A DNA stretch of 64,000 nucleotides from an uncultured Planctomycetota bacterium. Lineage in GTDB: Bacteria > Planctomycetota > PLA2 > JAEUHO01. Position numbers and translations under genes: made by a program. How positions within the stretch are numbered: the stretch's first letter is position 1; each line of letters begins with the position of its first letter. Below are positions 4,027 to 53,811 of the stretch, in pieces. Under the pieces are notes generated by a model that saw only the letters and a list, made by a program, of their open reading frames with translations, was not told where the DNA came from and made no database searches. The stretch spans positions 1,632,001 to 1,696,000 of the forward strand of contig CAVVXN010000005.1 of the NCBI GenBank assembly GCA_963752285.1. Direction: 5' to 3'.

Positions 4027-4716
4027 CTACGCCACCTCGTACACGTAGACGAGCGCGAGGTAGATCCCGGTGCCAACGAACACGAGCCCCGTCGCGAGGC
4101 GCGCCCACCTCGCCACGACGGTCGTGCGCCGAAGCGCCAGGCCGAGCGAGCGTGCGCCGAGGGACACTGCGAGCGCGAAGAGCACCACGGGGACCGCGGT
4201 GCCGACGCCGAACACCATCGGGAGCCAGACGCCCGAGCCCTGCCGGACGGCCAGCGGCACGAGGCCGAGGAAGAAGAGACCGGCCGAGACGGGGCAGAAC
4301 GAGAGCGCGAAGAGAACCCCGAGCGGCGCCGCGCCCGCGACGCCGGCGGAGGCGAGGCGCTCGCCGAGGCGCGCGCCGAGGCGCGTGCCCGGGCCGGCGA
4401 AGCGAAGGAGGTCCAGGAGGAGCAACCCGACCAGGATCAGCATCGGTCCGAGGGCCTGGTTCACGTACCGTTCGAGGAGTCGGGAGAGCCCGGCGGTCCC
4501 GACGAGGCTCTCGACGAGCAGGACGCCGAGGGCGACGTAGGCGAGCGCGCGGCCCGCGGCGTAGAGGAGGCCCGCGAAGAGGACGCGCCGAGGGCTCTCG
4601 ACGCTCCGCGCCACGTACGAGACCGCGGCGACGTTCGTCGCGAGCGGGCAGGGGCTGATCGACGTCAGGATCCCGAGCCAGAGGGCCGAGCCGATCGCGG
4701 CGAGAAGTGCCTCCAC
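4027..4716 (-). CDS. ArsG/CcdA-like membrane protein (aromatic arsenical efflux permease family)
   Basis: GTG at 4716; LGILTSISPCPLATN and LFALSFCPVSAGLFF motifs; multiple TM segments; last gene of the ars-type operon. Confidence 0.8.
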   Translation of the reverse strand: MEALLAAIGSALWLGILTSISPCPLATNVAAVSYVARSVESPRRVLFAGLLYAAGRALAYVALGVLLVESLVGTAGLSRLLERYVNQALGPMLILVGLLLLDLLRFAGPGTRLGARLGERLASAGVAGAAPLGVLFALSFCPVSAGLFFLGLVPLAVRQGSGVWLPMVFGVGTAVPVVLFALAVSLGARSLGLALRRTTVVARWARLATGLVFVGTGIYLALVYVYEVA

Positions 4717-4721
4717 CGGCG

Positions 4722-5231
4722 CTACTCCCGGTCGTCCGCGTCGTGCCAGGGCCCGATCACCATCTCGACCTCCGACTCGAGGTAGTCGAAGAAGCCCGGC
4801 CGGTCGTCGGCGAGGTCCCACGTCCGTCCGAGGACGGAGGCGTCCTTCTCCTTCCCGTCCTCGAGCTCGACGAGCACCAGGGAGCTCCGCACCAGGTCGT
4901 AGCGGAGCGCGGCGTCCCGGTTCCAGGCGTCGTCCATGTTCTCGACGTCCCACTCGACGGTCCCCGCGGCGAGCGCACGGGGGAACCGCGCCTCGAGGGC
5001 CTCGCGGGCCCACGCCTCGATCCGGTTGCAGGCGGCGCAGCGTTTCGTCGCGTGGTAGTAGCGGACGACGAGCTGGTGGTGCGGGGCCGTCTCGGAGGCG
5101 CGCGCCGTCGCGCCGGGCGCCGGCTGCTCGGCGGCGCGCCGTTGGCCGACCTCCTTCCCCACCGCGTACCCGGAGGTGAAGACGACGAAGGCGACGAGCC
5201 CCTTCGTGACGAGCCCACGGAGCGTCGTCAC
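4722..5231 (-). CDS. ArsF-like exported thioredoxin-fold protein
   Basis: GTG at 5231 overlaps the upstream stop (GTGA); N-terminal TM; VVRYYHATKRCAACNRIE motif. Confidence 0.75.
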   Translation of the reverse strand: MTTLRGLVTKGLVAFVVFTSGYAVGKEVGQRRAAEQPAPGATARASETAPHHQLVVRYYHATKRCAACNRIEAWAREALEARFPRALAAGTVEWDVENMDDAWNRDAALRYDLVRSSLVLVELEDGKEKDASVLGRTWDLADDRPGFFDYLESEVEMVIGPWHDADDRE

Positions 5232-5482
5232 GGGGACGTCCTCTCCGTGGCGGCGAGCAGCTCCTCGACGTACCTGGCGTTCGCGGCCTTCCCGACGAGG
5301 AGCACCTTGCCGTCCACGACCAGCGCCGGCGTCGTGATCACGCCGAGCGCGATCATCGCCTCGATGTCGGTCACCTTCTCGAGCGTGAAGTCGAGGCCGA
5401 GGGCCTCCGCCGCCTGCCGGGCGTTCTCGGCCAGGCGGTTGCACTTCGCACAGCCCGGGCCATACACCTGGATCTTCCGCAT
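5228..5482 (-). CDS. small redox-active disulfide protein (thioredoxin family, 84 aa)
   Basis: MRKIQVYGPGCAKC...GVITTPALVVDGKV. Confidence 0.9.
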   Translation of the reverse strand: MRKIQVYGPGCAKCNRLAENARQAAEALGLDFTLEKVTDIEAMIALGVITTPALVVDGKVLLVGKAANARYVEELLAATERTSP

Positions 5483-5505
5483 CGTTCTTCCTCTCGGGGG
5501 TTCGC

Positions 5506-6819
5506 TCATCCGGCGACGGCCCCGTACACGAGGCCGGTCACGGTGGCCATCACGACGACGAGAAGCGAAAAGACCGTGGTCTTCCGCCAGCCCATCACCT
5601 TCCCGATGACGAGAAGGTTGGGGAGCGAGAGCGCGGGCCCGGCGAGGAGGAGGGCAAGGGCCGGTCCCTCCGCCATCCCATGGTGGCGCAGCGCCTCGAC
5701 GATCGGGATCTCGGTCAGGGTCGCGAAGTAGAAGAGCGCCCCGACCACGGACGCCGTGAGGTTCGAGAACAGGCCGTTGTCCCCGACCCACGACCCGATC
5801 CCCTGGTCGGGGAGCAGGGCCGAGAGGAACCCCACCACGAACACGCCCCCGAAGAGCAGGGGGACCAAAAGCTTCGCGAACCCCCACGTGTTCGCCATCC
5901 ACTCGCGGCGCTCGTCCCCGTCCATCCAGAACCGCGTCATGAGCAGGACCGCGAGGCCCATGAGGCCCGCGAGGTACCACCGCATGTGCCACACACCCAT
6001 CACCCAGCCGCGGGAGGTCTCGATCGTGCCGATTTCGTCCTTTGCGATCGTCAGCCGCTCCCCCGCGGCGAGGTCGCCCGAGCGCTCCGCGAGCTGGACC
6101 GTGACGTCGCCCGCAGTCTCCTGCAGGACGACGCCCGCGACCTCGCGACCGTCGGTGAGGTGGATTCGCGCGTCGCCGGGGTTGTACCAGTCGCTGAACA
6201 CGAGGAACGCGACCATCGCGGCGAGGAGCAACGTGGTCTTCCGAAGCGACCTCGTCGGGGCCGCGCCCTCCGCGATCGGCACGGGGGTGGTACCGAGGCG
6301 GGCCGCCTCTTCGCGCCGGAACACGAACGCCATGGCGAGCCCGATCACGATGGCGAACCCGATCGCGCCGACCGCGCGGGCGACGCCGAGGTCCACGCCC
6401 AGCACACGGGCGGTCAGGAAGACGGCCAACACGTTGATCGCCGGTCCGGAGTAGAGGAACGCGCTGGCCGGGCCGAGTCCGGCGCCGAGGCGGTAGATGC
6501 CTGCGAACATGGGCAGGACGCTGCACGAGCAGACGGCGAGGATCCCGCCCGAGACCGCGGCCACCGGGTACGCGACGCGCTTCTTCGAGCGAGGGCCGAG
6601 GTGCTTCATCACGGCGGAGGGCGTCAGGAAGGTCGTGATCGCGCCCGCGATGAAGATCGCGGGGACGACGCACGCCAGCGTGTGGTTCCGCGCGTACCAC
6701 TGGAGGAGCCGGAACGCCTCCTGGATCGCGTTCCGGACCCGCGGGTCCGAGAGGGGCAGCGCGTACGCGACCCCGAAGACGCCCAGCATCGCAAGCAGGA
6801 TCCGGAGCTCTCGGCGCAT
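5506..6819 (-). CDS. DUF318/ArsP-family permease
   Basis: ATG at 6819; ILAVCSCSVLPMFAGIY, FLYSGPAIN, YFATLTEIPI and LLAGPALSLP motifs. Confidence 0.85.
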   Translation of the reverse strand: MRRELRILLAMLGVFGVAYALPLSDPRVRNAIQEAFRLLQWYARNHTLACVVPAIFIAGAITTFLTPSAVMKHLGPRSKKRVAYPVAAVSGGILAVCSCSVLPMFAGIYRLGAGLGPASAFLYSGPAINVLAVFLTARVLGVDLGVARAVGAIGFAIVIGLAMAFVFRREEAARLGTTPVPIAEGAAPTRSLRKTTLLLAAMVAFLVFSDWYNPGDARIHLTDGREVAGVVLQETAGDVTVQLAERSGDLAAGERLTIAKDEIGTIETSRGWVMGVWHMRWYLAGLMGLAVLLMTRFWMDGDERREWMANTWGFAKLLVPLLFGGVFVVGFLSALLPDQGIGSWVGDNGLFSNLTASVVGALFYFATLTEIPIVEALRHHGMAEGPALALLLAGPALSLPNLLVIGKVMGWRKTTVFSLLVVVMATVTGLVYGAVAG

Positions 6820-6850
6820 GGGTGGATTCCGAGGGGGAGGAGGGGGCGAC

Positions 6851-7177
6851 TCAGCAGCGACAGCTCGGAGACGCTGCGGAGGCCCGCTTGGGGTCGAGCA
6901 CCCCCTCGATGCACTCGAAGAACCCGAGCACACAGGGGGTGAGGAGCCGGTACACCTGCTGCTGGCCACGTCGCTCCGAGGCGACGATGCCCGCGTGCTT
7001 GAGCGTCGCGAGGTGCCGCGAGACCGTGGAGATGTCGTCGCCGACGATGGCCGTCAGGTCGCAGACGCAGCGGTCCCCGCGGGCCAGCTCCTCCACGAGG
7101 CAGAGACGGGTCGGGTGCGCCATCGCCTTGATGACGGTGGCCCGGGCTTCGAGACGGCGGCGCGTGCGGACGTTCAT
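6851..7177 (-). CDS. arsR: ArsR/SmtB family transcriptional repressor
   Basis: KAMAHPTRL...RCVCDL...STVSRHLATLKHAGIV; GGAG RBS upstream; Cys-rich C-terminus SCRC. Confidence 0.9.
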   Translation of the reverse strand: MNVRTRRRLEARATVIKAMAHPTRLCLVEELARGDRCVCDLTAIVGDDISTVSRHLATLKHAGIVASERRGQQQVYRLLTPCVLGFFECIEGVLDPKRASAASPSCRC

Positions 7178-12043: not shown

Positions 12044-13336
12044 TCAGCGCGCGCGCGACGCCGAGAGCGCGCGGTGCGCGATGTCGGTGCGGAACATCGC
12101 CCCCTCGAAGTCGATGCGCTGGACGCCCTCGTAGGCCCGGTCGCGCGCCTCGCGGAGGCCCGGGCCCCGGCCGGTGACGCAGAGCACCCGCCCGCCGGCG
12201 GTCACGACCCGGTCGCCCGCGCGGCGCGTCCCGGCGTGGAACACCTCGACCCCCTCCAGGCCCGCGGCCTCCTCGAGGCCCCGGATCGGCTTCCCGGCCT
12301 GGTACGCCCCCGGGTACCCCTGCGAGGCGATCACCACCCCCACGCACGGTTCCGGGTCCACGTCGAGGCCCTCGATCGACGCGAGCCTCCCCTCGGCCGC
12401 CGCGTAGAGGACCTCGAACAGGTCCGTCTCGAGGCGCGGCAGCACCACCTGGGCCTCGGGGTCGCCGAAGCGCACGTTGAACTCGAGCACGCGCGGTCCG
12501 CCCTTCGTGACCATGAGGCCCGCGTAGAGCACGCCGGCGAAGGGAGCGCCCTCCATCTTCATCCCGTGAATCGTGGGCACGAGGACCGTACGGATTACGC
12601 GGTCCATCAGGTCGCCCTCGACGACGGGCGCCGGGCTGTACGCGCCCATGCCGCCGGTGTTCGGCCCCGCATCCCCGTCGAGCGCGCGCTTGTGGTCCTG
12701 CGAGGAGGGCAGGACGAGGATCGTGTCGCCGTCGGTGATGGCGTGGATCGAGGCTTCCTCCCCGCGGAGGTACTCCTCCACCACCACCCGCGCGCCCGCG
12801 TCGCCGAACCGGCGCGCCGACATCGACTCGTCGAGCGCCGCGAGCGCCTGGTGCAGATCCTCGCAGATCGCGACGCCTTTCCCGGCCGCGAGCCCGTCGG
12901 CTTTCACCACGAGCGGGAAGACCTCGCTCTGGCGCACGTACGCGCGCGCCTCGTCGGCGTCGGTGAACGAACGCCACGCCGCGGTGGGCACGTTGTTCCT
13001 CACCATCATCTGCTTCGCGAACGCCTTGCTGCCCTCGAGGCGCGCGGCCGCGCGGGTCGGCCCGAAGATGACGAGGCCGTCGTCGCGGAACAGGTCCACG
13101 ATGCCCTGGACGAGGGGCGCCTCGGGGCCCACGACCGTCAGGTCCACCTTCTCCTCGCGGGCCCAGCGCCGGAGGCCCTCGACGTCGCTCGTGAGCAGGT
13201 CCGCGCGACATCGCGCCACCGCCTCCATGCCGCCGTTCCCCGGCGCGGCGAGGACCTCGTCGACGCGGGGGCTCTTCGCGAGCGTCGCGGCAAGCGCGTG
13301 CTCGCGGCCCCCGCCCCCCACGACCAGCACCTTCAT
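12044..13336 (-). CDS. purD: phosphoribosylamine--glycine ligase
   Basis: MKVLVVGGGGREHAL, VVKADGLAAGKGV, QDHKR...GPNTGGMGAYSP, LEFNVRFGDPE. Confidence 0.97.
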   Translation of the reverse strand: MKVLVVGGGGREHALAATLAKSPRVDEVLAAPGNGGMEAVARCRADLLTSDVEGLRRWAREEKVDLTVVGPEAPLVQGIVDLFRDDGLVIFGPTRAAARLEGSKAFAKQMMVRNNVPTAAWRSFTDADEARAYVRQSEVFPLVVKADGLAAGKGVAICEDLHQALAALDESMSARRFGDAGARVVVEEYLRGEEASIHAITDGDTILVLPSSQDHKRALDGDAGPNTGGMGAYSPAPVVEGDLMDRVIRTVLVPTIHGMKMEGAPFAGVLYAGLMVTKGGPRVLEFNVRFGDPEAQVVLPRLETDLFEVLYAAAEGRLASIEGLDVDPEPCVGVVIASQGYPGAYQAGKPIRGLEEAAGLEGVEVFHAGTRRAGDRVVTAGGRVLCVTGRGPGLREARDRAYEGVQRIDFEGAMFRTDIAHRALSASRAR

Positions 13337-13673
13337 GACGGCTCCTCGGGGCGATGTCCGGCGGCGCTCTCGTACCACGCGGGGGCCCGGCCGGCGAACG
13401 GATCGGGCGGGGCCCCTCCACCGTGCGCTCGACGATCCGTGACCCGTACGTGACATCCGAGGCCCGCGAGAGGCCCCCGAGAGCGCGCTCCGGGCGTCTG
13501 CGGGGCCGTTCCAGGGTCCGTCCCCCCCCGGTGTCACCCGATACGTAGCGATGGGCCCTCGCTCCTTGGAGGGGAGTGCCGTCCGCGGTACCCTCGCCCG
13601 GGGTCAGGCCCCAAGGAGGCATGTCTAGACCCAGCGCCCCCGGCGAATGGGTCGATTGGGAGGTTCTCGATCC

Positions 13674-13880
13674 ATGAGGAAGTTCGTCGTCCTGCTGGCG
13701 CTGGTCGTCGCGGTCGGCACGATGGTTGGCTGCTCCAGCCCGTGCAACCCCTGCCAGCCCTGTCAGCCCTGTGTCGCCGCTCCCGTCTACCAGAGCCCGT
13801 GCTGCCCCGCTCCGAGCGGTGCGGTCGATGGCGCCTGGGGGATGGCCGCGCCGATGGCGCCCGCCGGTGGGGGCTACTAG
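13674..13880 (+). CDS. small Cys/Pro-rich lipoprotein 1 (68 aa)
   Basis: GGAGG RBS; MRKFVVLLALVVAVGTMVG|CSSPCNPCQPCQPCVAAPVYQSPCCP...GGGY; lipobox; terminator follows. Confidence 0.85.
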   Translation: MRKFVVLLALVVAVGTMVGCSSPCNPCQPCQPCVAAPVYQSPCCPAPSGAVDGAWGMAAPMAPAGGGY

Positions 13881-13948
13881 GACTCGTACCGCTACGAGCA
13901 CGTAGGGTCGTCCCGCGCGACGAGTGCGGGAGGACCCGGACATCCGAG

Positions 13949-13985
13949 ACGCACGGCGATCGAGATCGCCGTGCGTTTCTCTTTT
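13949..13985 (+). terminator. intrinsic terminator after lipoprotein 1
   Basis: ACGCACGGCGAT-CGAG-ATCGCCGTGCGT followed by TTCTCTTTT. Confidence 0.8.
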
Positions 13986-14174
13986 TCGGCCGCATCTCGT
14001 GTTCGTGGGCGGGGATCACGGCGCCACACGGGCCCGGCCCGACGTAGCGCCGCGCGCGGGGCACGCGCCGCCACCCGCCGGCCCGCGCCGGTCGTGGACC
14101 GCGCGCTTGGCAGCCGCCGCGCGACCTCCTACGATCGCGCGGCGACGCGCGGTTCGCGTCGGGAGGACGAAGGC

Positions 14175-14441
14175 ATGCGGCCGCGAACGATCCTCGGCGT
14201 GGTGCTCGCGCTCCTCTTCGTCGCCGGCGCCCTGGGCCTCTCCGGCTGCTGCGTCGAGCCGGCGGACTGTCTCTGTCCGGGCGACCCGTGCCAGGAGGGT
14301 GCGGCGCCGTGCGACCCGTGTCGGAACGGCGGCGAGAAGCGGTTCTGGACGCCGATCCACCGCGTGTCCTGTTGCTGGTGGCAGCCCGTACCGTGCCCGT
14401 GCGCGGACCCCGCCCCACTCCCCTCGGCCTGCGCGCCGTAG
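14175..14441 (+). CDS. small Cys/Pro-rich lipoprotein 2 (88 aa, OmcA-like Cys pattern)
   Basis: GGAGG RBS; MRPRTILGVVLALLFVAGALGLSG|CCVEPADCLCPGDPC...PCDPC...SCCWWQPVPCPC; 12 Cys. Confidence 0.8.
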   Translation: MRPRTILGVVLALLFVAGALGLSGCCVEPADCLCPGDPCQEGAAPCDPCRNGGEKRFWTPIHRVSCCWWQPVPCPCADPAPLPSACAP

Positions 14442-14599
14442 CGGCACCGAATTCGCCGGGGACACGCGTCGTGACCCACGGGTGACCCGGGAGGGCATCC
14501 TGGGGGCGTACCGGGACTCGTGCTCGCGGCGTCCCCGGGGACCGTGGCCGTCGTCCCGTTCAACCGGGGCCGGGGCCCTCGACGTCGGGACGGAGGACC

Positions 14600-14761
14600 A
14601 TGAAGAAGCTGACCCTCTGGCTGCTTGCGGCCGCTCTCCTGGGGCTCGGGGCCGCCTGCAGCTCCCCCTGCAACACCCCCAATCCCTGCAACACACCCAA
14701 CCCCTGCAACACGCCGAACCCCTGCAACACCCCGAATCCGTGCAACCCCTGCGGGCGCTAG
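14600..14761 (+). CDS. small Cys/Pro-rich lipoprotein 3 (53 aa; not in the ORF track)
   Basis: GGAGG RBS; MKKLTLWLLAAALLGLGAA|CSSP(CNTPNP)x4CNPCGR; repeat units differ only at synonymous positions. Confidence 0.88.
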   Translation: MKKLTLWLLAAALLGLGAACSSPCNTPNPCNTPNPCNTPNPCNTPNPCNPCGR

Positions 14762-14950
14762 GCCCCCGCGGAGCGCGTAGCCTCGTCTGCTTGTGGTCAG
14801 GAGGAGGATCGGCGGTCCGGGATCCAGGTCTTGGAGAACGGTCCCGCTCGGCCTATTCTCTTGGCTCGGAGGTTGGGCGCCGCCTTCAGGCGTCGGTCTG
14901 CAGACGTCACGGCCGGGCCCATGTACGTTCATCCTAGGAGGTACATCCCC

Positions 14951-15238
14951 ATGCTTCGCAAGCTCGTGATCGTGGCCGCGCTGGTCGGCTGCGTCGGCTT
15001 GGTGGCCTGCTCGTCGCCGTGCAGTCCGTGTAACCAGCCGAACCCCTGCAACAACCCGTGCAGCAGTCCCTGCAACCAGCCGAACCCCTGCAACACCTGC
15101 AGCCCCTGCAACCAGCCGAACCCGTGCAACCAGCCGAACCCCTGCGCGTCGCCGTGCGCCACCCCGTGCGCGCCGGCTCCGTGCGCCCCGCCGCCCTGCG
15201 CGCCGCCCCCGGCGCCCTGCGCGGCTCCCGGCTACTAG
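14951..15238 (+). CDS. small Cys/Pro-rich lipoprotein 4 (95 aa)
   Basis: [42 protein letters not shown]...[13 protein letters not shown]; 16 Cys in the 76-aa mature part. Confidence 0.88.
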
Positions 15239-15263
15239 CTCGCGGTCGGCACAGAGGCTGAGT

Positions 15264-15336
15264 GGGAACCGCCCGGACCCGGGCGGTTCTCTTCCCCAGG
15301 GAAGGTCGTGGTCGAGGGCACCACGGCCTTCCCTTC
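15264..15336. terminator. two consecutive hairpins between lipoprotein 4 and the convergent tRNA-Pro
   Basis: GAACCGCCCGG/CCGGGCGGTTC followed by TCTT, and GGGAAGGTCGTGGT/ACCACGGCCTTCCC followed by TT. Confidence 0.65.
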
Positions 15337-15457
15337 GCTTTGCGTGGGCGCGCGGACGTCGATCGCGTCACGCGCGTTCGTCCGCGGCGCCGGGCCTCCG
15401 ACGCGCGAGGGCCCGCGACGCCGCAGCGTCCGTGAACGGGCGCGCGCGGGCGGAAGT

Positions 15458-15532
15458 TGGTCGGGGAGATGGGATTCGAACCCACGACTGGCAGCTCCCA
15501 AAGCTGCCCCTCTACCACTGAGGTACTCCCCG
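15458..15532 (-). tRNA. tRNA-Pro(TGG)
   Basis: CGGGGAGTACCTCAGTGGTAGAGGGGCAGCTTTGGGAGCTGCCAGTCGTGGGTTCGAATCCCATCTCCCCGACCA. Confidence 0.96.
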
Positions 15533-15645
15533 AGCCGGTCGTCTCGGTTGGCGCCCAAAGGCGCGCCGCGGCGAAGGGTACCACCTACCGGTAGACGCCC
15601 CAAGCGAGCCGGTACGACGTACGGGCCCGCGCTTCGCCGCGCGCG

Positions 15646-17406
15646 CTACCCGCCGGTGGTCGGGCGGTCGGGCGTGCTGCCCGGCTTCGGTCCCGCCGCG
15701 GGACGAGGCGGCGGCTTGGGAGGCGTGGGCGCCGGTCCGTGTCCGCCCTTCCCGTTGGGCTTCTTCGCCGTCGCCTCTTCGAGGACCTCTACGTCCACGT
15801 CGAAAGTGTAGAGCCGCTGGCGTTCGAGCAGAAGCTCCCACGGCGTGCCGCCGTAGCGGGACCGGAGCCGCATGCGCCTCAGCCACAGCTCGGCGAGCGC
15901 GAGGTTTCGCTCGCGGTCGTCGAGGTCCCGCGCCTCGGGCCGCCGCTCGAACCCCTCGGCGATCAGGCGGGGAACGAGCCGCGCTCGCCGGTAGGTGACG
16001 TGGAGCGGCTTGATGCGGCGGAGCGCGGCGACGCGCTCGAGCCAGTGGAAGCGGACCTGCTGGAGCAGGGTGCCGAGCAGCTGGAAGTCGGCCTCGACGC
16101 GTTCGGAGAGCGGGTCCTGACGATCGGAGGGCGTCCGGGCGCGGCCGTCCACCTCGGCCCACCACTGGAGGGCCTGGTTCACGCGCTCGAGCCGGGCGGT
16201 GGCGTGGGCGATCGCCCGGCGCACGTCGTCCATCTCCTCGTACCAGACGGTCAGCGGCTGGAGCGAGCGCACGGGTCGCTGCGGGCGGAGACCGAGGCCG
16301 CCGCCCACCATCTCGAGCGAGCCGAGCGTCTGGAGCACGGGGCACGCCTCGTCCGCCAGATGCTCCCAGATCCGCACGATCACGCGCGCGCGCGCGTCCT
16401 TGTCGAGGTCCTTCAGGACGCGCGCGCGGGGGCGCAGGTCGGGCGCGAAGCGCGCAAGTCGCCCCGGGTCGTACACGGGCGACGCCTGCCTCTTCGCAGC
16501 CGAGCCGGTCGCGGAGAAGTCGGTGACGAAGTAGCGTCCGCCGGTGCTGAACGCGAGCGACGCGGGCGCCCAGTAGCCGAATCCGGACGGCACCGGGTAG
16601 CGCGGCGGGCGCTGCCACAGGAACTCGAGCTGCGCGAGGTCGAGCTCCCAACCGTACGGGACCAGGCCGAGCGCGACGTCGCCGTCGTAGAAGAGCGAGT
16701 CGTGATCGCCCGAGCCCGGCTCCGGTTCGAAGCGCTCGACGAGTCCGAGGGCGGGCACGTTCCTCGGCACGAACGTCTCCTGCCACGCCCGCTCGAACCC
16801 CGCCTCGGGCGCGATCGCGTAGAACGCGACGCCCCCGTCGAGGAGCGCCTCCCGTGTCGCCTCGACGTCGTCCTCGGCGTCGCCCCCGTCTGCCGTCACG
16901 AGGCAGATCGCGAGGGGACCGCGGGTGCGCCGGAGCTCGGCCGCGGCGTCGCGCGTGGCGCGGAGCAGGTTCTTCGTGCCGGGCACGGGGATCGCCGCCA
17001 GGGCCTCGAGGGCGACCCGGGCCCGAGCGGGGTCGGGATCCGGGCGGAGCCGGTCCGCGCCGCAGCCGAGCACCCCGATGGCGAGCCCCGGAGGGCCCTC
17101 CGCCGCGACGCTCTCGATCGCGGCCGCGAGCTGCTTCAGGCGCGGAACGAGCGAGGGCGTCGGGTCGATCACGAGCATCAGCGCGCCGGCGCCGGCCTCG
17201 GGCCGCGCCTCGGCGCGGAGCGCGAGGTCCCGCGCCACGAACCGGACCGCGTCCCGGAAGTCGCGCCCGCGCTCGTACACCTCGGCCGGTGTGCGTGCCT
17301 CCGTGGCGACGCCGCCCTCGGCGCCCGGAGGTGGGGTGAGCCCCGCGAGGAGGAGCGCCGCCGCGAGGGCGAAGGACGGGCGGAGGAGGAGCCGGGGCCG
17401 CGGCAC
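15646..17406 (-). CDS. secreted vWA-like domain protein
   Basis: Signal peptide; LMLVIDPTPSL (degenerate MIDAS), ICLVTADGGD, LAFSTGGRYF; Pro-rich tail. Confidence 0.6.
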   Translation of the reverse strand: MPRPRLLLRPSFALAAALLLAGLTPPPGAEGGVATEARTPAEVYERGRDFRDAVRFVARDLALRAEARPEAGAGALMLVIDPTPSLVPRLKQLAAAIESVAAEGPPGLAIGVLGCGADRLRPDPDPARARVALEALAAIPVPGTKNLLRATRDAAAELRRTRGPLAICLVTADGGDAEDDVEATREALLDGGVAFYAIAPEAGFERAWQETFVPRNVPALGLVERFEPEPGSGDHDSLFYDGDVALGLVPYGWELDLAQLEFLWQRPPRYPVPSGFGYWAPASLAFSTGGRYFVTDFSATGSAAKRQASPVYDPGRLARFAPDLRPRARVLKDLDKDARARVIVRIWEHLADEACPVLQTLGSLEMVGGGLGLRPQRPVRSLQPLTVWYEEMDDVRRAIAHATARLERVNQALQWWAEVDGRARTPSDRQDPLSERVEADFQLLGTLLQQVRFHWLERVAALRRIKPLHVTYRRARLVPRLIAEGFERRPEARDLDDRERNLALAELWLRRMRLRSRYGGTPWELLLERQRLYTFDVDVEVLEEATAKKPNGKGGHGPAPTPPKPPPRPAAGPKPGSTPDRPTTGG

Positions 17407-17568
17407 GGTCCCTCACTCTACCCGCGGGGCGCCGAGCCGCGGGGGCCGCGAGCCCGGCCCTCGGCGCTCGATCCGTCTCCGAGGCGCGACCCGGACGGGC
17501 GGCCCGGGCCCGATACGATCTCGGGTCGAGCGGCGCGTTCCTCTCGATGCGCGCCCGGAAGGAGACCG

Positions 17569-18633
17569 ATGCGGCGCCCCGTCTTCCTCTCGTCCCTGGC
17601 CCTCGCCGCCCTCGCCACCGGTCTTTGGGGCTGCGGCTCCAAGGACGACGCGCCCCTGCCGGAGGAGCTCTGGTGCTATCCGGTGTCGGCCATCATCATC
17701 AAGCGGAACGACCAACAGCCGTTCGAGGCGATCGTGCGTGCGAACAAGCTCTTCCTCGAGGCGAAGAGCGGGCGGTCGTTCGCGGACCTCGCCCGCCGGA
17801 ACAGCGACGACCCCGAGTCCGCTGCGGTCGGCGGGTTCCTGGGCTTCATGCGCCCCGCCGACGACGAAATCGTTGCCGGCGCGATCCAGGCGCTGGCGCC
17901 CGGCGTGGTCGGAGGCCCCGTTCGGACGCAACGTGCGATCGAGATCATGCTGCGCCACACCTTCGACGAGGGGCGGGAGATCGAGGCGCGGTCCACCGTC
18001 GCTGCGTACGGATTCCTCGTCCCCTGGAAGGGATCGGCGAAGGAAGCGGAGCGGACGAAGGAGGAGGCGAGACAGCTCGCCGAGTCGTTGCTCGCCGACG
18101 TGACGTCGGGCAAGAAGACCGTCGAGGACGCCGCACGCTCGGTGCTCGGCGACCGCGACGTGAAGCCGGCGGCGTACATCGGGCTGATCCGCGACGCGGA
18201 GCCGATGAAGGGCTTCTACGAGGCGCTGCGGGCCGTCCCCGTGGGCGGCTACATCCCAGTCGCCGACTACCCCGGCGGGTACTCCGTGGTGAAGCGTGGC
18301 CCGCTCGTGCGCTGCATCCTCCGGGAGATCCTGATCCAGCACGTCGAGAGCCCCTCGCGCAAGCTCAGCATCCGACGCACGAAGGCGGAGGCGAAGGAGC
18401 TCGCGGAGAAGGTCCTGTCGGAGTGCCACCGGGACGGTTCGAACTGGCCCGAGATGGTGCGTCGCTACCACGACGATCCCGGCCTCGCAGCGATCGACGG
18501 CTCGGTCGGCGTCGTGTCGAACGACCTCCCGCCGCCGATGGTGGACGTGCTGGTGGACACGCCGCCCGGCGAGGTCGCCTCGCGTCTGGCCGAGACGCCC
18601 GAGGGCTACCACATCCTCTACAAGGTGAAGTGA
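17569..18633 (+). CDS. parvulin (PpiC)-type peptidyl-prolyl isomerase lipoprotein with repeated PPIase domains
   Basis: AAGGAG RBS; lipobox LWGC; SFADLARRNSDDPESAAVGGFLG; EILIQH...RTKAEAKELAE; ETPEGYHIL. Confidence 0.8.
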   Translation: MRRPVFLSSLALAALATGLWGCGSKDDAPLPEELWCYPVSAIIIKRNDQQPFEAIVRANKLFLEAKSGRSFADLARRNSDDPESAAVGGFLGFMRPADDEIVAGAIQALAPGVVGGPVRTQRAIEIMLRHTFDEGREIEARSTVAAYGFLVPWKGSAKEAERTKEEARQLAESLLADVTSGKKTVEDAARSVLGDRDVKPAAYIGLIRDAEPMKGFYEALRAVPVGGYIPVADYPGGYSVVKRGPLVRCILREILIQHVESPSRKLSIRRTKAEAKELAEKVLSECHRDGSNWPEMVRRYHDDPGLAAIDGSVGVVSNDLPPPMVDVLVDTPPGEVASRLAETPEGYHILYKVK

Positions 18634-38907: not shown

Positions 38908-39114
38908 GTGAAGAAGGCTTTCCTGGTTCTCGGTCTCATCGCAGCGGCGGGACTCGCCGGAGCGTGCCATCACTACAGCTACGCGGGCACGCCGGGCGCC
39001 ACGACGTACGCGCAGCCCGCCCCGACGGGCCCGATGCCGGCGCCGATGACCGCGCCCCCGATGTCCGCCCCCGCGGCGGGCACGGGCTGCGGCGGCCCGC
39101 ACGGTTGCGGCTAA
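38908..39114 (+). CDS. small Pro-rich lipoprotein with C-terminal CGGPHGCG (68 aa)
   Basis: CAGGAG RBS and GTG start; MKKAFLVLGLIAAAGLAGA|CHHYSYAG...PMPAPMTAPPM...GCGGPHGCG. Confidence 0.75.
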   Translation: MKKAFLVLGLIAAAGLAGACHHYSYAGTPGATTYAQPAPTGPMPAPMTAPPMSAPAAGTGCGGPHGCG

Positions 39115-41285: not shown

Positions 41286-41819
41286 CTAGGGAGCCGCTCA
41301 GGTCCCGCCGACGCAGGGCTCGGGCGCGGCTCTCGGCGCGCCCGCCCCGGCGAAGAGGCCCTTCATCGACCCGCGCGACGCCGCGGGGCGCGGCGTGGCG
41401 ACGGCCTCGCGCGGCGGCATGACCGGCGCGGCGACGGCGGGCTGAACCCGCGCGGTGCGGCTGACCGGCACCACCGGCGTCGGCCCGGCCAGGTCGCGGC
41501 GTACCAGCGGGACCGCGCGATGCCCGCGCATCAGCTCCATCGAGGGCGGCGCCGGCGTCGGGGGCCGCGCGGTGGTCGTCGCGACCACGCGCGGCTCGAT
41601 CACGACCGGCCGCGCCACGGGTCCGGCATGCACCGGTCCGGAGATCACGGGGCTCGGGCTCACGGGCCTCGAGCTCACGGTGCGGCGGATCACGCGCGGC
41701 GGCGGCAGCGCGGCCCGGGAGGCCACGCTCGTCCGACGCTGCGACAGCCCGCCCGAGGCACAGCCGCCGAGGACCACGACGGCCCCCAGCGCGAACGCCA
41801 CGGTTCTCGGCATCCTCAT
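41286..41819 (-). CDS. Pro/Arg-rich lipoprotein paralog C; ends at TGA 41298, or reads through as Sec to TAG 41286
   Basis: GGAGG-rich RBS; lipobox VLGG|C; C-terminus EPCVGGT-TGA-AAP-TAG aligns with DPCAGGRCxVP of its paralogs. Confidence 0.8.
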
Positions 41820-42104: not shown

Positions 42105-42665
42105 TCAGGGGACCAGACACCGGCCGCCGGCACACGGGTCGGCCGCACAGGGGGAAGGCGCGGCCACCGGGGACGCCCGCGGCGACTCGAAGAGGCCGCG
42201 CAACTCCGAGAGCGAGCTCGTCCTCGCCGCGCCGAGCGACCTCGGGGCCCGGGGCGCGGGAGCGGCCCGAGCCGGAAGCGGCGAGGCGACGGAGAGCCGG
42301 AGCGGCGCGGGACGGCTGACGGGGACGACCGGCGTCGGGCTCGAGAGGGCCCGCCGCGCGATGGACGACGTGCCCGGTCTCGCGAGGATCTCCATCGACG
42401 CGGGCCGCGGCGGCCCCGGCGCGCGGACCACCGCCGGCTCGGGCGCTGCCAGGCGCCTTGTCTCGACGACGCGCGGCGCGACGAAGGCCGGCGTGACGGT
42501 CCGGGCCGCGGCGACGGAACGGACCGGGAGGCGATAGGACGCGCTCCGCACGACCGGAGGCGGGAGGGACGCGCGTGAACGCGGCACCCGGACGGGGGCG
42601 CCGGGGGCCGCGCAGGCACCCAGGAGCAAGAGCCCCCCCATCCCGAACGCCAGGATCTTCGACAT
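42105..42665 (-). CDS. Pro/Arg-rich lipoprotein paralog B
   Basis: AGGGAGGA RBS; MSKILAFGMGGLLLLGA|C...; ends PCAADPCAGGRCLVP. Confidence 0.8.
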   Translation of the reverse strand: MSKILAFGMGGLLLLGACAAPGAPVRVPRSRASLPPPVVRSASYRLPVRSVAAARTVTPAFVAPRVVETRRLAAPEPAVVRAPGPPRPASMEILARPGTSSIARRALSSPTPVVPVSRPAPLRLSVASPLPARAAPAPRAPRSLGAARTSSLSELRGLFESPRASPVAAPSPCAADPCAGGRCLVP

Positions 42666-48837: not shown

Positions 48838-50703
48838 TCAGTGCCCTGGATCGACCGGGTCCAGGTCCGCTTCGACGTCGATCTCGTCGCTCCCGCGGCG
48901 GACCCTGAGCTTCAGGTGCTCTCCCTCCCAACGCCCGGTCAGCAGCTCCGCACCCGAGCGGGCGTCGGTGATCGGCCTTCCGTCCACGCCGACGATCACG
49001 TCCTGTGCACGAAGGCCCGCGTGCTCCGCCGCCGAGCCCGGCGTGACCTCGTCGATGGCGGGCGGCCCGTCGCCGGCCGCGAGGCGGATGCCGAGGCGCC
49101 CGCGCCGGAGCGAACGTCCCGCCTCGAGGCGCGGGAGGGCCGCCACGACGCTCGGCCAGGGAACGACGAAGCCGATCCCGGAGTTGCGCCCCTGTCGAAG
49201 CGGCATCCAGAGCTGGAGTACGCCGAGGACACGGCCCCGCACGTCCACGAGCGCGCCGCCGACGTTCGCGTCGGTCACCCCGGCGTCCGTCTGCCACTGG
49301 CCCCGCCACGCGCTCGGCACGTCGTCCGCGTGGACCTTCGAGAGGACGCCGAACGTGAGCAGCGGGTCGGGGAGACGGTCTTTTCCGAACGGATTTCCGA
49401 GCGCGAGCACGAAACGGCCGGGCTGGAAGGCGTCGGCGGGCGCGACGTCGGGGACGGAGAGACCGGGCGCGGTCCGCCCGCCGTCGTCCTTCCCGGCGAG
49501 GTCGGCCTGGAGGAGCGCGATCCCGAGGCGTCCGTCGTGCGCGACGAGCTTCGCTGGCACGTCGAGGCCCCCGCCGAGGTGCGCCGTCACCTTCGTGACG
49601 GCCCGCAGCCCCGACTCGACCTGCATCTCGGGCGGGAGCTCGGCGCCGGGCAGCACGAGTTCCGTCACGTTCGTCAGGTTGTAGAGGCTCGTGACGATGA
49701 ACCCGTCGCCGCTCACGAGCACGCCGCTCACGGGACCCTGCCAGCGGGCCGTGTCGGCGAGGCTCCGGTCGCCGGGGCTCTTCGTCGAGAGCGGCGTCGC
49801 GCGCGTGACCTCGAGGCTCACGACCCACGGATAGGCCTTCGCGGCCGCGCTCCGGAGCACGCGCTCGAGCTTGGCCGCGCCCGTCGCGCGCGCGGGCGTA
49901 GCCGCGACGGCCGTGAACGCGATCTTCGTCTCGGGCAGGTCCGAGTAGATCGCGCGGATGCGGTCGATGGGCAGGACCTTGCCCAGGAACTGGTACGGCT
50001 CGGTGGGCGTCGGCAGCATCCACGTGGAGACCGTCCCCACGAGTCGGCCCTCCACGTCCACCACCGGGCCGCCGTTGACGCCCGGGTTCACGGCCGCGCT
50101 CGTGTACACGTACTCGAGGCGGCCGCCGCCGTCGCCCGGCGGGAGGTACGTCAGGGCCGAGACGATGCCCGCGGTCAGCGCGGGCGGGGTCTCCTCGGAC
50201 AGACCGAACGCGTTCCCCGTAACGAAGAGGAAGTCGCCGACCTTCAGGTGGTCGCTCCCCGCCGGCGGCAGCGCGAACGGGAACCCCCCGGGCGGCGGCT
50301 GGGTGACACGGAGGAGGCAGGTGTCCGAGCCCCGCTCGCGCCGCACGACGACCGCGGGGTACGAGCTGAACCCGCCCTTCTCCAGATCGGGCACGCGGAT
50401 CTCGACGTCCTCCGACAGGTGGTCGAGCCCGCGGCCCTTGGGCCCGAGCACCGCGCCGACGTCGCCGTCGGAGAGCACGAGCCCGGAACGGGAGACGATC
50501 ACCCCCGACGACGAGGAGGCGCGTTCACTCTCGACCCCGCGCGGGACGCAGATCACCGTGGCGGGCGTGACCTTCCCGATGGCTTCGCGGAACTCGCGCT
50601 CGACGTCGTCGAGGCTCCCCTTCGCGAAACCCCTCGCGGGAGCGAGGAGCACCACCGCGAGCACGGGCGTCCAGCGGAGGAGGGAGAGCCGGGGGCGGGT
50701 CAT
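48838..50703 (-). CDS. secreted tandem trypsin-like (S1C) double pseudo-protease + PDZ
   Basis: Two S1C-like domains lacking catalytic residues (LSDGDV / NPGVNGGP; VTSLYNL / DANVGGAL) and a C-terminal PDZ. Confidence 0.8.
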   Translation of the reverse strand: MTRPRLSLLRWTPVLAVVLLAPARGFAKGSLDDVEREFREAIGKVTPATVICVPRGVESERASSSSGVIVSRSGLVLSDGDVGAVLGPKGRGLDHLSEDVEIRVPDLEKGGFSSYPAVVVRRERGSDTCLLRVTQPPPGGFPFALPPAGSDHLKVGDFLFVTGNAFGLSEETPPALTAGIVSALTYLPPGDGGGRLEYVYTSAAVNPGVNGGPVVDVEGRLVGTVSTWMLPTPTEPYQFLGKVLPIDRIRAIYSDLPETKIAFTAVAATPARATGAAKLERVLRSAAAKAYPWVVSLEVTRATPLSTKSPGDRSLADTARWQGPVSGVLVSGDGFIVTSLYNLTNVTELVLPGAELPPEMQVESGLRAVTKVTAHLGGGLDVPAKLVAHDGRLGIALLQADLAGKDDGGRTAPGLSVPDVAPADAFQPGRFVLALGNPFGKDRLPDPLLTFGVLSKVHADDVPSAWRGQWQTDAGVTDANVGGALVDVRGRVLGVLQLWMPLRQGRNSGIGFVVPWPSVVAALPRLEAGRSLRRGRLGIRLAAGDGPPAIDEVTPGSAAEHAGLRAQDVIVGVDGRPITDARSGAELLTGRWEGEHLKLRVRRGSDEIDVEADLDPVDPGH

Positions 50704-51836
50704 CGGCGCGGGATCAGGCCCTTCGGAGCCGCCGGGAGACGACCGCTCCACTCGTAGGAGAGCCTGCCGCGCCGGAACTTGATGCGGAGGAACGTGCCCT
50801 CGCGACAGAGCGAGAGGAGGTTCGTCACGTCGGACGCGGTGCGGATCCGGTGGTCCTCGCCGAACCCCCAGATCGAGACGATCACGTCGCCGACCCGCAG
50901 CGGCCTCTTCGACTTCGGGCCCGCGGGACCGTCCGGTGCGACCGCGGCGACCGCGGCACCCTCGGGGCTCCCGTGCTCGCCGACGGAGGTCTGGAGCTCG
51001 AGACCGAGGTACCCGGCGCTGGCGTCCGTCCGGCTCTCGATCAGGGCCATCAGGAACGCGTTGACCTGATGGATGGGGATCGAGAAGGACGCGCCCGTGT
51101 TCGTGTGCCCCGCGCCCGGCTGCGAGGGCCGCGTCGCGATCATGCCGTTGATGCCGAGGAGGTCGCCCTTGCGGTTCCAGAGCGGACCGCCCGAGTTGCC
51201 GGGGTTCACCTCGGCGTCGTGCTGCAGCGCGTTGCCGTAGAGGAACTCGCCGCCGAGGATCCGGTCGCGCCCCGACAGCACGCCGAGCGTAACGACCGGA
51301 TGGCCGTCGAGGGCGAGGCCGAACGGGTTGCCGGTCGCGAGGACCCAGGCGCCCTCCTCGACGACCTTGCTCGCGCGCACGCGGTTCGGGTTCAGGGTGA
51401 AGGCGTCCAGGTCCTTCGGCCGGCGCGGGAACGCGAGGAGCGCGATGTCGTACTGCGGGATCGTGTCGTGGACCTCGACGGCGCGCTCCTGGCCGTCCGA
51501 GGTCGAGATCGTGACCACGTCCGCGCCGGCGACGACGTGCACGTTCGTGATCACCCAGAGACGGCTCGCCCGCTCCACGATCACGCCCGACCCGAACGCG
51601 TAGGGCCGCACCTGGGCGCCGTCGACCGGCTTCCCGTCGCGACCGCGCGGATAGCGCTTGTTCCACACCGCCACCGTCATCTTCCGGACGGTGGCCGCGG
51701 TGTCCACGAGCTCCTGCTCCATGTCGAGCACGTCGGAGAGGTCCGACGAGAGGCCCCGGTCGGAGTCGTCGTCCGCGCGCGCCGGACCGAGCAGGGTCAG
51801 CGCGAGGACTCCGGCCAGCAGAACGCGTGTGCGCAC
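50700..51836 (-). CDS. HtrA/DegP-family serine protease + PDZ (intact triad)
   Basis: ITNVHVV, YDIALL, NPGNSGGP; signal peptide; overlaps the downstream start. Confidence 0.88.
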   Translation of the reverse strand: MRTRVLLAGVLALTLLGPARADDDSDRGLSSDLSDVLDMEQELVDTAATVRKMTVAVWNKRYPRGRDGKPVDGAQVRPYAFGSGVIVERASRLWVITNVHVVAGADVVTISTSDGQERAVEVHDTIPQYDIALLAFPRRPKDLDAFTLNPNRVRASKVVEEGAWVLATGNPFGLALDGHPVVTLGVLSGRDRILGGEFLYGNALQHDAEVNPGNSGGPLWNRKGDLLGINGMIATRPSQPGAGHTNTGASFSIPIHQVNAFLMALIESRTDASAGYLGLELQTSVGEHGSPEGAAVAAVAPDGPAGPKSKRPLRVGDVIVSIWGFGEDHRIRTASDVTNLLSLCREGTFLRIKFRRGRLSYEWSGRLPAAPKGLIPRR

Positions 51837-51893
51837 GAGGAAAGGCTATCGCGCGAAACAGGATCCCGCGTGATCGCTTCCGGCGTCCCCGTC

Positions 51894-53807: not shown

Positions 53808-53811
53808 GGCG

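Follow-up and report, generated by a model that had tools for sequence, protein, structure and literature searches.

Four predicted lipoprotein genes between purD and a tRNA-Pro gene

We analysed a stretch of 64,000 nucleotides (nt) from an uncultured Planctomycetota bacterium (GCA_963752285.1, contig CAVVXN010000005.1, positions 1,632,001 to 1,696,000; G+C content 73.2%), hereafter the window. Four small open reading frames (ORFs), named L1 to L4, lie on its plus strand between purD and tRNA-Pro(tgg) and encode predicted lipoproteins rich in cysteine and proline (Table 1). A preliminary description, made from the letters alone, had reported four co-oriented ORFs with a lipobox Cys, a mature chain opening with CSSPC in three, mature Cys counts of 7, 12, 7 and 16, and a terminal GY in two. 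Every countable detail of it was confirmed.

Each ORF is preceded by a Shine-Dalgarno (SD)-like site (GGGAGG, GGGAGGA, GGAGGA and AGGAGG for L1 to L4) at a distance of ~10, 7, 2-3 and 9 nt from the ATG, respectively; the gap of L3 is short (distances by reading). The n-regions of the precursors (MRK-, MRPR-, MKK- and MLRK-) each lead into a stretch of 14-18 hydrophobic or small residues, after which come the lipoboxes MVGC (L1), LSGC (L2), GAAC (L3) and LVAC (L4). Lipobox calls were made by regular expression, in place of SignalP or LipoP: L2 and L4 matched the canonical pattern [LVI][ASTVI][GAS]C, and L1 and L3 a relaxed one. The lipobox Cys was invariant across 13 L1-type and 24 family sequences and, together with the n-region and the hydrophobic h-region, bears out the earlier reading of these signals as lipoprotein-type.

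The predicted mature chains (34-76 aa) contain 14-21% Cys. They begin with CSSPC in L1, L3 and L4 and with CCVEP in L2, and their last residues are Y, P, R and Y, with L1 and L4 ending in GY. Leaving the lipobox Cys aside, the number of free Cys per chain is six (L1), 11 (L2), six (L3) and 15 (L4). Mature L1 and L4 contain neither Lys nor Arg, and the only Arg of L3 is its last residue. L1 has a conserved core, PVYQSPCCPAPSGxVDGxWG, in which P37, V38, Y39, S41, P42, C43, C44, P45 and P47 were invariant in an alignment with 12 relatives. The mature chain of L2 opens with CC and contains CCWWQ. That of L3 consists of CSSP, four CNTPNP units and CNPCGR, and that of L4 of CNQPNP repeats followed by a tail, with GY at the end; almost no hydrophobic or aromatic residues occur in either. 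The C-N-x-P-N-P units are encoded by 18-bp tandem repeats in L3 and L4 (Table 1).

Table 1. Features of the window discussed in the text; precursors and mature chains are predicted, and promoter-like sites and hairpins are candidates
Feature	Position	Strand	Remarks
L1	13674-13880	+	68-aa prolipoprotein, 49-aa mature chain, 7 Cys; ATG start
L2	14175-14441	+	88-aa prolipoprotein, 64-aa mature chain, 12 Cys; ATG start
L3	14600-14761	+	53-aa prolipoprotein, 34-aa mature chain, 7 Cys; ATG start
L4	14951-15238	+	95-aa prolipoprotein, 76-aa mature chain, 16 Cys; ATG start
18-bp repeat in L3	14665-14746		4.6 copies, 87% matches
18-bp repeat in L4	15068-15145		4.3 copies
Promoter-like site of L1	13566..13594	+	TTGGAG-N17-TACCCT; same pattern at same distance in L002
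Promoter-like site of L2, probably also L3	14107..14135	+	TTGGCA-N17-TACGAT
Promoter-like site of L4	14831..14859	+	TTGGAG-N17-TATTCT
Intrinsic terminator after L1	13946..13989	+	15-bp stem and T-run
5' leader of L4	14860..14950	+	conserved element CGGAGGTTGGGC...GCCC
GC-rich hairpin after L4	15265..15290	+	11-12 bp stem, then UCUCUUCCCC
purD, phosphoribosylamine-glycine ligase (upstream flank)	12044..13336	-	Pfam GARS_N/A/C, E 1e-77 to 1e-32
tRNA-Pro(tgg) (downstream flank)	15458..15532	-	same tRNA 3' of the cluster in L001, L002 and L003
586-aa ORF	15646-17406	-	signal peptide, no Pfam family; between tRNA-Pro and next conserved gene
Lipobox (LWGC) protein	17547-18633	+	no Pfam match at E <= 1e-3
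ArsR-type regulator, ArsP_1-type permease, small thioredoxin-like protein, unknown ORF, DsbD_2-type membrane protein	4027-7177	-	
Tiny lipoprotein-like ORF	38908-39114	+	68 aa, GTG start, AGGAG upstream; no Pfam family
Lipobox protein (171 aa)	41298-41813	-	no Pfam family
Lipobox protein (186 aa)	42105-42665	-	no Pfam family
Four trypsin-like (HtrA-type) peptidase genes in a row	48838-54951	-	3 of 4 with PDZ domains

Conservation of the cluster and coding evidence

Related loci were sought with the peptide pattern PCN[QT]PN[PQ]C across 185,579 species-representative genomes, followed by tblastn confirmation. The scan yielded 41 stretches, and three loci were confirmed, all in metagenome-assembled genomes of Planctomycetota (L001, L002 and L003). 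The gene order in both L001 and L002 was deaminase, fur, conserved hypothetical gene, purD, L1, L2, L3, L4, tRNA-Pro(tgg) on the minus strand and tRNA-Arg(tct). L003, which begins at a contig end, has one gene like L4 and one like L3, and after them the same two tRNAs. The purD/tRNA-Pro synteny that the preliminary description had proposed as a check was therefore found in L001 and L002, and its tRNA-Pro side in L003. The window purD, which is divergent to L1-L4 and whose product starts MKVLVVGGGG, was 67-74% identical to its syntenic counterparts in L001 and L002. Judged by these comparisons, the four types have been retained across genus-to-family-level divergence.

L2 orthologues were identified by synteny in L001 and L002, and their alignment had 29 invariant columns, including eight Cys and CC-W. 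L4 orthologues were present in L001, L002 and L003. The L3 orthologues carried three to seven CNQPN-type units (by reading), and the number of free Cys varied between orthologues both for L3 (6-7) and for L4 (11-17).

The four ORFs stood out in base composition. ORFs with the lipobox pattern and a G+C content at third codon positions (GC3) above 0.8 occurred at ten places in the 64 kb, on both strands, but a mature chain with at least 14% Cys was encoded by only four of them, L1-L4; the other six had at most 6%. GC3 was 0.88-0.94 in the frames of L1-L4, as in purD, fur and acrB (0.92-0.96). The long ORFs that overlap the region had a GC3 of 0.68-0.74 and an Arg content of 13-25%, the signature of spurious frames in high-GC DNA. 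A mirror frame of L4 (14929-15162, minus strand) had a GC3 of 0.91, which it shares with L4 by necessity, and lacked a start context.

The ratio of nonsynonymous to synonymous substitutions (dN/dS, Nei-Gojobori method) was 0.14-0.28 for L1, 0.35-0.66 for L2, 0.16-0.54 for L3 and 0.19-0.42 for L4, the values for L3 and L4 being rough, as repeat alignments are approximate. It was below one in all 18 pairwise comparisons, at dS of 0.4-1.7. L1-L4 are thus under purifying selection, and the codon-position signal, synteny, selection and the expression signals described below establish them as real genes, as the preliminary description had claimed.

Expression signals

Sites of the form TTGGnn-N17-TAnnnT were detected at conserved distances upstream of L1 in two of three genomes (strict pattern), of L2 in three of three and of L4 in four of four; upstream of L3 there was none in four genomes. 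The number of chance matches expected, estimated from base composition, is ~0.016 per 330 nt. The site upstream of L1 in L001 reads TTGGCC-N17-TGTGTT (by reading), the TACGAT upstream of L2 is kept in all three genomes, and the L4 site lies 91-97 nt before the ATG in all four. The terminator after L1 folds with -32.2 kcal/mol (z = -5.25), and none of 200 shuffles folded as well; a 16-bp hairpin follows L1 in L001. For the hairpin after L4, z was only -1.54 (62-nt piece) and the terminator scan made no call, and in L002 a terminator was called after L4.

The promoter-like sites and terminators are placed such that the likely transcription units are L1 alone, L2 and L3 together, and L4 alone. 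The leader of L4, ~90 nt long, contains CGGAGGTTGGGC...GCCC in all four genomes (window 14860-14950, L001 9903-10003, L002 10316-10415, L003 39-142). Its consensus fold has 15 predicted pairs with a compensatory change in only one, so an RNA structure in this leader is not established. The small lpp gene of Escherichia coli is monocistronic and has a promoter of its own, a strong SD site and a strong terminator. By analogy with this layout, and given the plain sigma-70-like boxes, expression of the cluster may be constitutive and high. No conserved operator was seen by eye near the promoter-like sites, without a formal Fur/Zur-box scan.

A family of repeat lipopeptides

L1-L4 matched no Pfam or NCBIfam model at E <= 10, apart from sub-threshold matches to signal peptides or low-complexity sequence; in Pfam, L1, L2 and L4 gave nothing and L3 a single sub-threshold match to a lipid-attachment site. 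A profile search of the PDB found no relative, its three matches (E 0.04-1.4) all falling on the signal peptide or on a short Cys stretch. Relatives were recovered from large protein collections. A word-seeded search with L4 retrieved four proteins among 77 candidates, and a seven-sequence profile searched against 1.84 billion representatives retrieved 31 proteins at E <= 1e-3, two of them at E <= 1e-10. On reading, 21 of the 31, all 48-109 aa long, had a signal peptide with a lipobox as well as Cys/Pro/Asn repeats. A 24-sequence profile searched against a 5.8-billion set retrieved 34 proteins among 8000 scored candidates, including the window L1 and the L1 genes of L001 and L002. An organism was named for three of the 34, in each case Planctomycetota or Planctomycetia, and a functional name, where given, was always 'hypothetical protein'. 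The nearest ESM Atlas clusters were from Planctomycetota, labelled 'lipoprotein family' or hypothetical, with scores of 0.81-0.88, under the lead threshold of 0.9.

We defined the family by a lipobox signal peptide, at least two C-x-x-P-N-x-C or C-x-P-C units and a mature chain of less than ~100 aa. L1, L3 and L4 have these features and align with relatives and with loci L001-L003, and by this test they belong to an unannotated family of C-[NDE]-x-P-N-P repeat lipopeptides. L2 does not. Aligned to the repeat family with hhalign, it matched over only 16 signal-peptide columns, and a word-seeded protein search with L2 retrieved only L2 itself among four candidates. Accordingly, the set of four put forward in the preliminary description holds as a single family for L1, L3 and L4, and L2 is not demonstrably related to it beyond the signal peptide; by these comparisons L2 represents a separate family of Cys/Pro-rich lipoproteins.

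Several subfamilies could be told apart by reading: an L1 type with the invariant core P-V-Y-x-S-P-C-C-P-x-P, pure repeat peptides like L3, an L4 type with a PCAPAPC tail, a type ending in GGSGWR, a Lys-rich CNQPNKC type ending in CAK, and an acidic CEPNPCDQPNPC type that often ends in CGGGGKSCG. Statistics were computed on 49 distinct lipobox-bearing members, after exclusion of ten larger or non-lipobox matches and removal of two duplicates; P0011, P0026, P0039 and P0055, not called by the stricter lipobox rule, were left out. Mature length ranged from 17 to 93 aa (median 49). The most abundant residues were Pro (22.7%), Cys (18.8%), Asn (12.9%), Ala (9.4%) and Gly (8.0%). Among ~400 gaps between successive Cys, the commonest spacings were 3 (115), 6 (94), 4 (53), 5 (40) and 1 (34), and Cys spacing was kept in relatives, as had been anticipated. 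Of the 49 members, 25 had an odd and 24 an even number of free Cys. Residue +2 was Asn in 15, Ser in 13, Ala in ten, Cys in nine, Leu in one and Gln in one, and Asp in none. No internal Lys or Arg occurred in 28 of the 49.

Nine of the larger or non-lipobox matches were scanned for domains. Three of them (P0018, P0020 and P0024, ~240-260 aa) have a SoxA/TsdA-type cytochrome c domain with NPCAAKNPC-type repeats on both sides. They resemble the family in their N-P-C repeat units, signal peptide and profile E-values (8e-6 to 5e-5) but differ in having no lipobox, a haem-binding domain and the spacer A-A-K in place of x-P-N, and the likeness may be compositional. We know of no characterisation of such NPCAAKNPC-repeat cytochrome proteins, in which Cys repeats are joined to a haem domain of the sulfur-oxidation type.

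Among members with an organism name the family is restricted to Planctomycetota, in agreement with its earlier portrayal as an unannotated and easily missed family of a phylum in the Planctomycetes-Verrucomicrobia-Chlamydiae (PVC) group. It also appears lineage-specific, as the N-Q/T form of the repeat was confirmed at just the three loci of the genome scan. No paper on the family was found in a literature search limited to Creative-Commons texts of PMC and bioRxiv. Small Cys-rich lipoproteins as such are already known; this family, its six-residue repeat and the conserved four-gene cluster are undescribed.

Predicted structure

AlphaFold2 models of L4 (24 aligned sequences) and L1 (13 sequences) had a mean predicted local distance difference test (pLDDT) score of 51.4 and 53.5, respectively. 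Only the signal-peptide helices were confident in both models, almost all of the mature parts having a pLDDT below 50, and the mature chains are thus not predicted to be globular. Since each six-residue unit contains two Pro, an extended conformation rich in turns or polyproline may be expected.

Neighbouring genes and other features of the window

Going outwards, purD, a gene for a secreted hypothetical protein and those for a Fur-family regulator and a deaminase lie upstream of the cluster; downstream, the order is tRNA-Pro, the 586-aa family-less protein, the lipobox protein and tRNA-Arg. None of these neighbours suggests a pathway. Within ~5 kb of the cluster there was no exporter, no metal pump or metal sensor and no peptide-modifying enzyme, radical-SAM or other. 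The observation that no modifying enzyme or transporter is adjacent was thereby upheld. An Rfam scan of 13000-15700 returned the tRNA plus one chance-level match and nothing else.

The 586-aa ORF is absent from L001 and L002, where the corresponding space is ~240 bp, and L003 has only a weak 53-residue match; it is a lineage-specific insertion adjoining a tRNA. The lipobox protein beyond it is kept between tRNA-Pro and tRNA-Arg in L001, L002 and L003. The group that comprises the ArsR-type, ArsP_1-type, thioredoxin-like and DsbD_2-type genes lies outside the conserved synteny (L001 and L002 compared).

Elsewhere in the window, the 68-aa lipoprotein-like ORF encodes an Ala-, Pro- and Met-rich mature chain that opens with CHHYSY and closes with GCGGPHGCG. 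We considered it as a family member and dropped it, as its hhalign match to the L1 family covered no more than the signal peptide. The two adjoining lipobox proteins of 171 and 186 aa have similar mature chains, rich in Pro, Arg and Val. A row of trypsin-like peptidase genes lies farther downstream (Table 1).

Comparison with known systems

The closest system in proposed working is OmcA, described in PMC2811131 as a Cys-rich lipoprotein of 9 kDa that belongs to the disulfide-linked outer membrane complex replacing a rigid wall in chlamydiae. Like the predicted products of L1-L4, OmcA is a tiny lipoprotein of the PVC superphylum that has no enzyme domain and whose mature chain is very rich in Cys. 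L2 moreover has a mature chain that starts CC and contains DPC/CxPC units; any finer likeness to the OmcA sequence is putative. There are also differences: no Pfam family matched L1-L4, so there is no detectable homology; C-N-x-P-N-P repeats, a very high content of Pro and Asn and a cluster of four genes are traits of L1-L4 and not of OmcA; and the window showed no partner of the OmcB or MOMP kind.

Within the phylum, the known Cys-rich wall proteins are the YTV proteins of Planctomycetia, which PMC8567305 and PMC12673574 present as envelope-associated and planctomycete-restricted. PMC8567305 also records Lnt and LolCDE for a planctomycete and treats Cys-rich wall proteins as an accepted trait of the class. 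L1-L4 share with YTV proteins the phylum and the Cys-richness, and the envelope association that is established for YTV proteins is predicted for L1-L4; the YTV tripeptide, however, occurs in none of the L1-L4 translations. YTV proteins were found through tryptic proteomics of wall preparations. To such standard proteomics L1, L3 and L4 would be invisible, given the absence of Lys and Arg from mature L1 and L4 and the terminal position of the only Arg in L3. Planctomycete envelopes were reportedly found to be rich in proline and cystine by Liesack et al. in 1986. The envelope context invoked by the preliminary description needs qualifying in two respects: L1-L4 lack the YTV motif of the known Cys-rich wall proteins of planctomycetes, and their family is lineage-specific.

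More distant comparisons are instructive for single properties. Lpp is likewise a very small lipoprotein, and L1 resembles it in being monocistronic by prediction, with its own promoter-like site, a strong SD site and a strong terminator, and in having a plausible role in envelope architecture. L1-L4 nevertheless matched no such profile, the modelled mature parts (L1 and L4) contain no helix in contrast to the coiled coil of Lpp, and none of the four has the C-terminal Lys used for attachment to peptidoglycan. The metallothioneins SmtA and BmtA are also short, with ~20% Cys, C-x-x-C units and few hydrophobic residues. They are, however, cytoplasmic, whereas L1-L4 are predicted to be exported and lipid-anchored and are rich in Pro and Asn; there was no Pfam or NCBIfam match, and the Cys number of L3 and L4 varies among orthologues. 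Keratin-associated and small proline-rich proteins of animal cornified tissues have short Cys/Pro repeats that form a disulfide-cross-linked matrix. The SPCCPAPS of L1 resembles CCxP units, but the likeness is no more than an analogy, those animal proteins being eukaryotic and intracellular and having no lipid anchor.

A disulfide-stapled envelope layer as the favoured reading

The family probably helps to build or protect the cell envelope. More specifically, we tentatively favour, as quite possible if short of probable, a reading in which L1-L4 form a lipid-anchored envelope layer stapled by disulfides, OmcA-like in its working and not homologous to OmcA. Each precursor would be exported by Sec, lipidated at the lipobox Cys and cleaved by signal peptidase II, leaving a chain of 34-76 residues hanging from the membrane into the periplasm. 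The anchoring membrane would probably be the outer one, because residue +2 is never Asp; this +2 rule is that of E. coli and may not hold in planctomycetes. Having no globular fold, the chains would be stiff, turn- or polyproline-rich strings of C-N-x-P-N-P and C-x-x-C units with ~19% Cys, and the oxidation of their thiols in the periplasm would give disulfides in part within a chain and in part between chains or to other envelope proteins. The outcome would be a covalently stapled, lipid-anchored protein layer with a stiffening or sealing effect on the envelope. Through their conserved aromatic motifs (the L1 core and CCWWQ), L1 and L2 might act as specific connectors in this layer, with L3 and L4 as repeat fillers. 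Lipidation, location, abundance, Cys redox state and structural role are all what we infer from the genes. Taken as a whole, the preliminary interpretation is partly supported: it was right about the genes, the family and the phylum, and the mechanism it put forward, an intermolecular disulfide mesh of abundant structural peptides or else surface metal binding, is a hypothesis.

Three observations lead us to favour the stapled layer. With an odd free-Cys count in 25 of the 49 members, L2 and L4 included, intrachain pairing would be incomplete in many of them, so about half of the family would be unable to pair all Cys within the chain. The four types are kept together, and that they remain side by side despite a purD identity of 67-74% suggests that they act together and are not redundant. 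Repeat number varies among orthologues, which is reminiscent of polymer-like structural proteins and unlike the fixed Cys set of a metal cluster. We also counted in its favour that no neighbour is a metal regulator, an efflux gene or a modifying enzyme, that the lpp-like layout would fit high, constitutive expression, that the mature parts of the L1 and L4 models score below 50 in pLDDT, and that Lnt, LolCDE and Cys-rich wall proteins are on record for planctomycetes and a disulfide-linked Cys-rich lipoprotein, OmcA, for chlamydiae.

Several points weigh against the stapled layer. No Dsb oxidase was identified in the window, which contains only the thioredoxin-like gene and the DsbD_2-type membrane protein gene ~8 kb off, and neither of these is syntenic in L001 or L002. 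The family is rare (three confirmed loci from 41 stretches in 185,579 genomes) and hence no general wall component. The commonest Cys spacing, C-x-x-C, is equally apt for metal or redox chemistry, and the Asp or Glu that replaces Asn beside Cys in many relatives would suit cation binding. Searches with Pfam, NCBIfam and PDB profiles gave no sign that L1-L4 are homologous to OmcA, YTV proteins or any structural family, and the lipoboxes of L1 (MVGC) and L3 (GAAC) are non-canonical. That the lipopeptides are the lipid-anchored part of a disulfide-cross-linked layer in one planctomycete lineage, and as such an independently evolved counterpart of OmcA, is a stronger proposal, and we regard it as rather unlikely.

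Alternative explanations

The same Cys-rich chains could stay reduced, or cycle, and serve as thiol ligands, either binding Cu, Zn, Cd, Hg or As like a membrane-tethered metallothionein, carrying sulfane sulfur or acting as a sacrificial redox buffer. We consider this, the main rival, possible, if somewhat doubtful. It would account for a Cys content of ~19% in chains that, in L3 and L4, are nearly devoid of hydrophobic and aromatic residues, for the predominance of the C-x-x-C spacing (115 of ~400 gaps), for the Asp or Glu often found beside Cys in relatives (CEPNPCDQPNPCDPC types) and for the CGGGGKSCG, ACGG or CGPCGY tails of several relatives, which may resemble the flexible Cys arm of sulfur carriers. 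The absence of an AlphaFold fold without a ligand is as expected of apo-metallothioneins, and Cys chemistry, rather than a structural role, is plausible for the NPCAAKNPC repeats that flank a cytochrome c domain in three of nine proteins, although the family may resemble these cytochrome-linked repeats (E 1e-5 to 1e-6) through convergence of low-complexity sequence. Against this rival, the adjacent genes include no metal sensor, efflux pump, chaperone or sulfur-oxidation gene, the synteny being with housekeeping genes. The promoter-like sites are of the plain sigma-70 type with no operator apparent by eye, the Cys number is not fixed among orthologues, no metallothionein profile in Pfam was matched, and an oxidising periplasm generally disfavours stable thiolates. 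If all disulfides were instead intramolecular (C-x5-C and C-x2-C loops), each chain would be a stiff lipid-anchored rod, and the result a spacer or brush with no covalent mesh, comparable to Lpp without attachment to peptidoglycan. Six-residue units with Pro at two positions favour, from composition, the extended turn or polyproline form that such a rod needs; the free-Cys counts of L1 and L3 (six each) are even; repeat number, and hence length, differs between species; and the gene layout is Lpp-like. Against these stand the odd free-Cys counts of L2 (11), L4 (15) and 25 of the 49 members, the conserved aromatic motifs of L1 and L2, which suggest specific partners, and the absence of a C-terminal Lys from L1-L4, which together make a simple spacer distinctly unlikely.

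Short, Cys-rich peptides with a variable number of repeats and several paralogues in tandem also call to mind exported precursors of natural products or bacteriocins, in which what looks like a lipobox would be no more than part of a leader. We hold this to be very improbable: neither a radical-SAM enzyme, a cyclodehydratase, a lanthipeptide synthetase, a peptidase-ABC exporter nor an immunity gene was found within ~5 kb upstream or downstream of the cluster or at the syntenic loci, and a Sec-type n- and h-region with an invariant Cys at the cleavage site is generally the mark of lipoproteins and not of leaders of ribosomally synthesised and post-translationally modified peptides. Scarcely credible, finally, is that L1-L4 are chance ORFs in DNA of 73% G+C or the shadow of a true gene on the opposite strand. 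Long spurious ORFs abound in high-GC DNA, the mirror frame of L4 matches a coding GC3, and automatic annotation calls the relatives 'hypothetical protein' where it names them at all. Yet dN/dS stays below one in all 18 comparisons, order and synteny are kept in three other genomes, the SD sites, promoter-like sites and terminator all lie on the plus strand, and 21 of the 31 profile matches have in common small size, a signal peptide, a lipobox and the repeats.

Significance for planctomycete envelopes

The family illustrates how small proteins are systematically missed: its members are unnamed or 'hypothetical' in every source and match no Pfam or NCBIfam model, and tryptic proteomics of planctomycete walls would miss the 28 of 49 that have no internal Lys or Arg. 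Its lineage specificity, with three confirmed loci, caps its general importance, and it therefore cannot account in general for the envelope chemistry of planctomycetes. As a peptide architecture, the six-residue C-N-x-P-N-P repeat has gone unstudied, and it is short enough for synthesis and direct characterisation. Should the chains bind metal, they would be the first membrane-tethered periplasmic metallothionein-like family known to us. Should they be stapled by disulfides, C-N-x-P-N-P would be a new structural repeat that sets one Cys per six residues along an extended chain, and a thiol-stapled protein sacculus would be a recurring PVC answer to the problem of envelope rigidity. The robust envelope of planctomycetes is a long-running question, for which the YTV proteins are so far the only named Cys-rich components. 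A second class of Cys-rich proteins, with ~19% Cys, 23% Pro and a predicted lipid anchor, offers a concrete and testable candidate for it.

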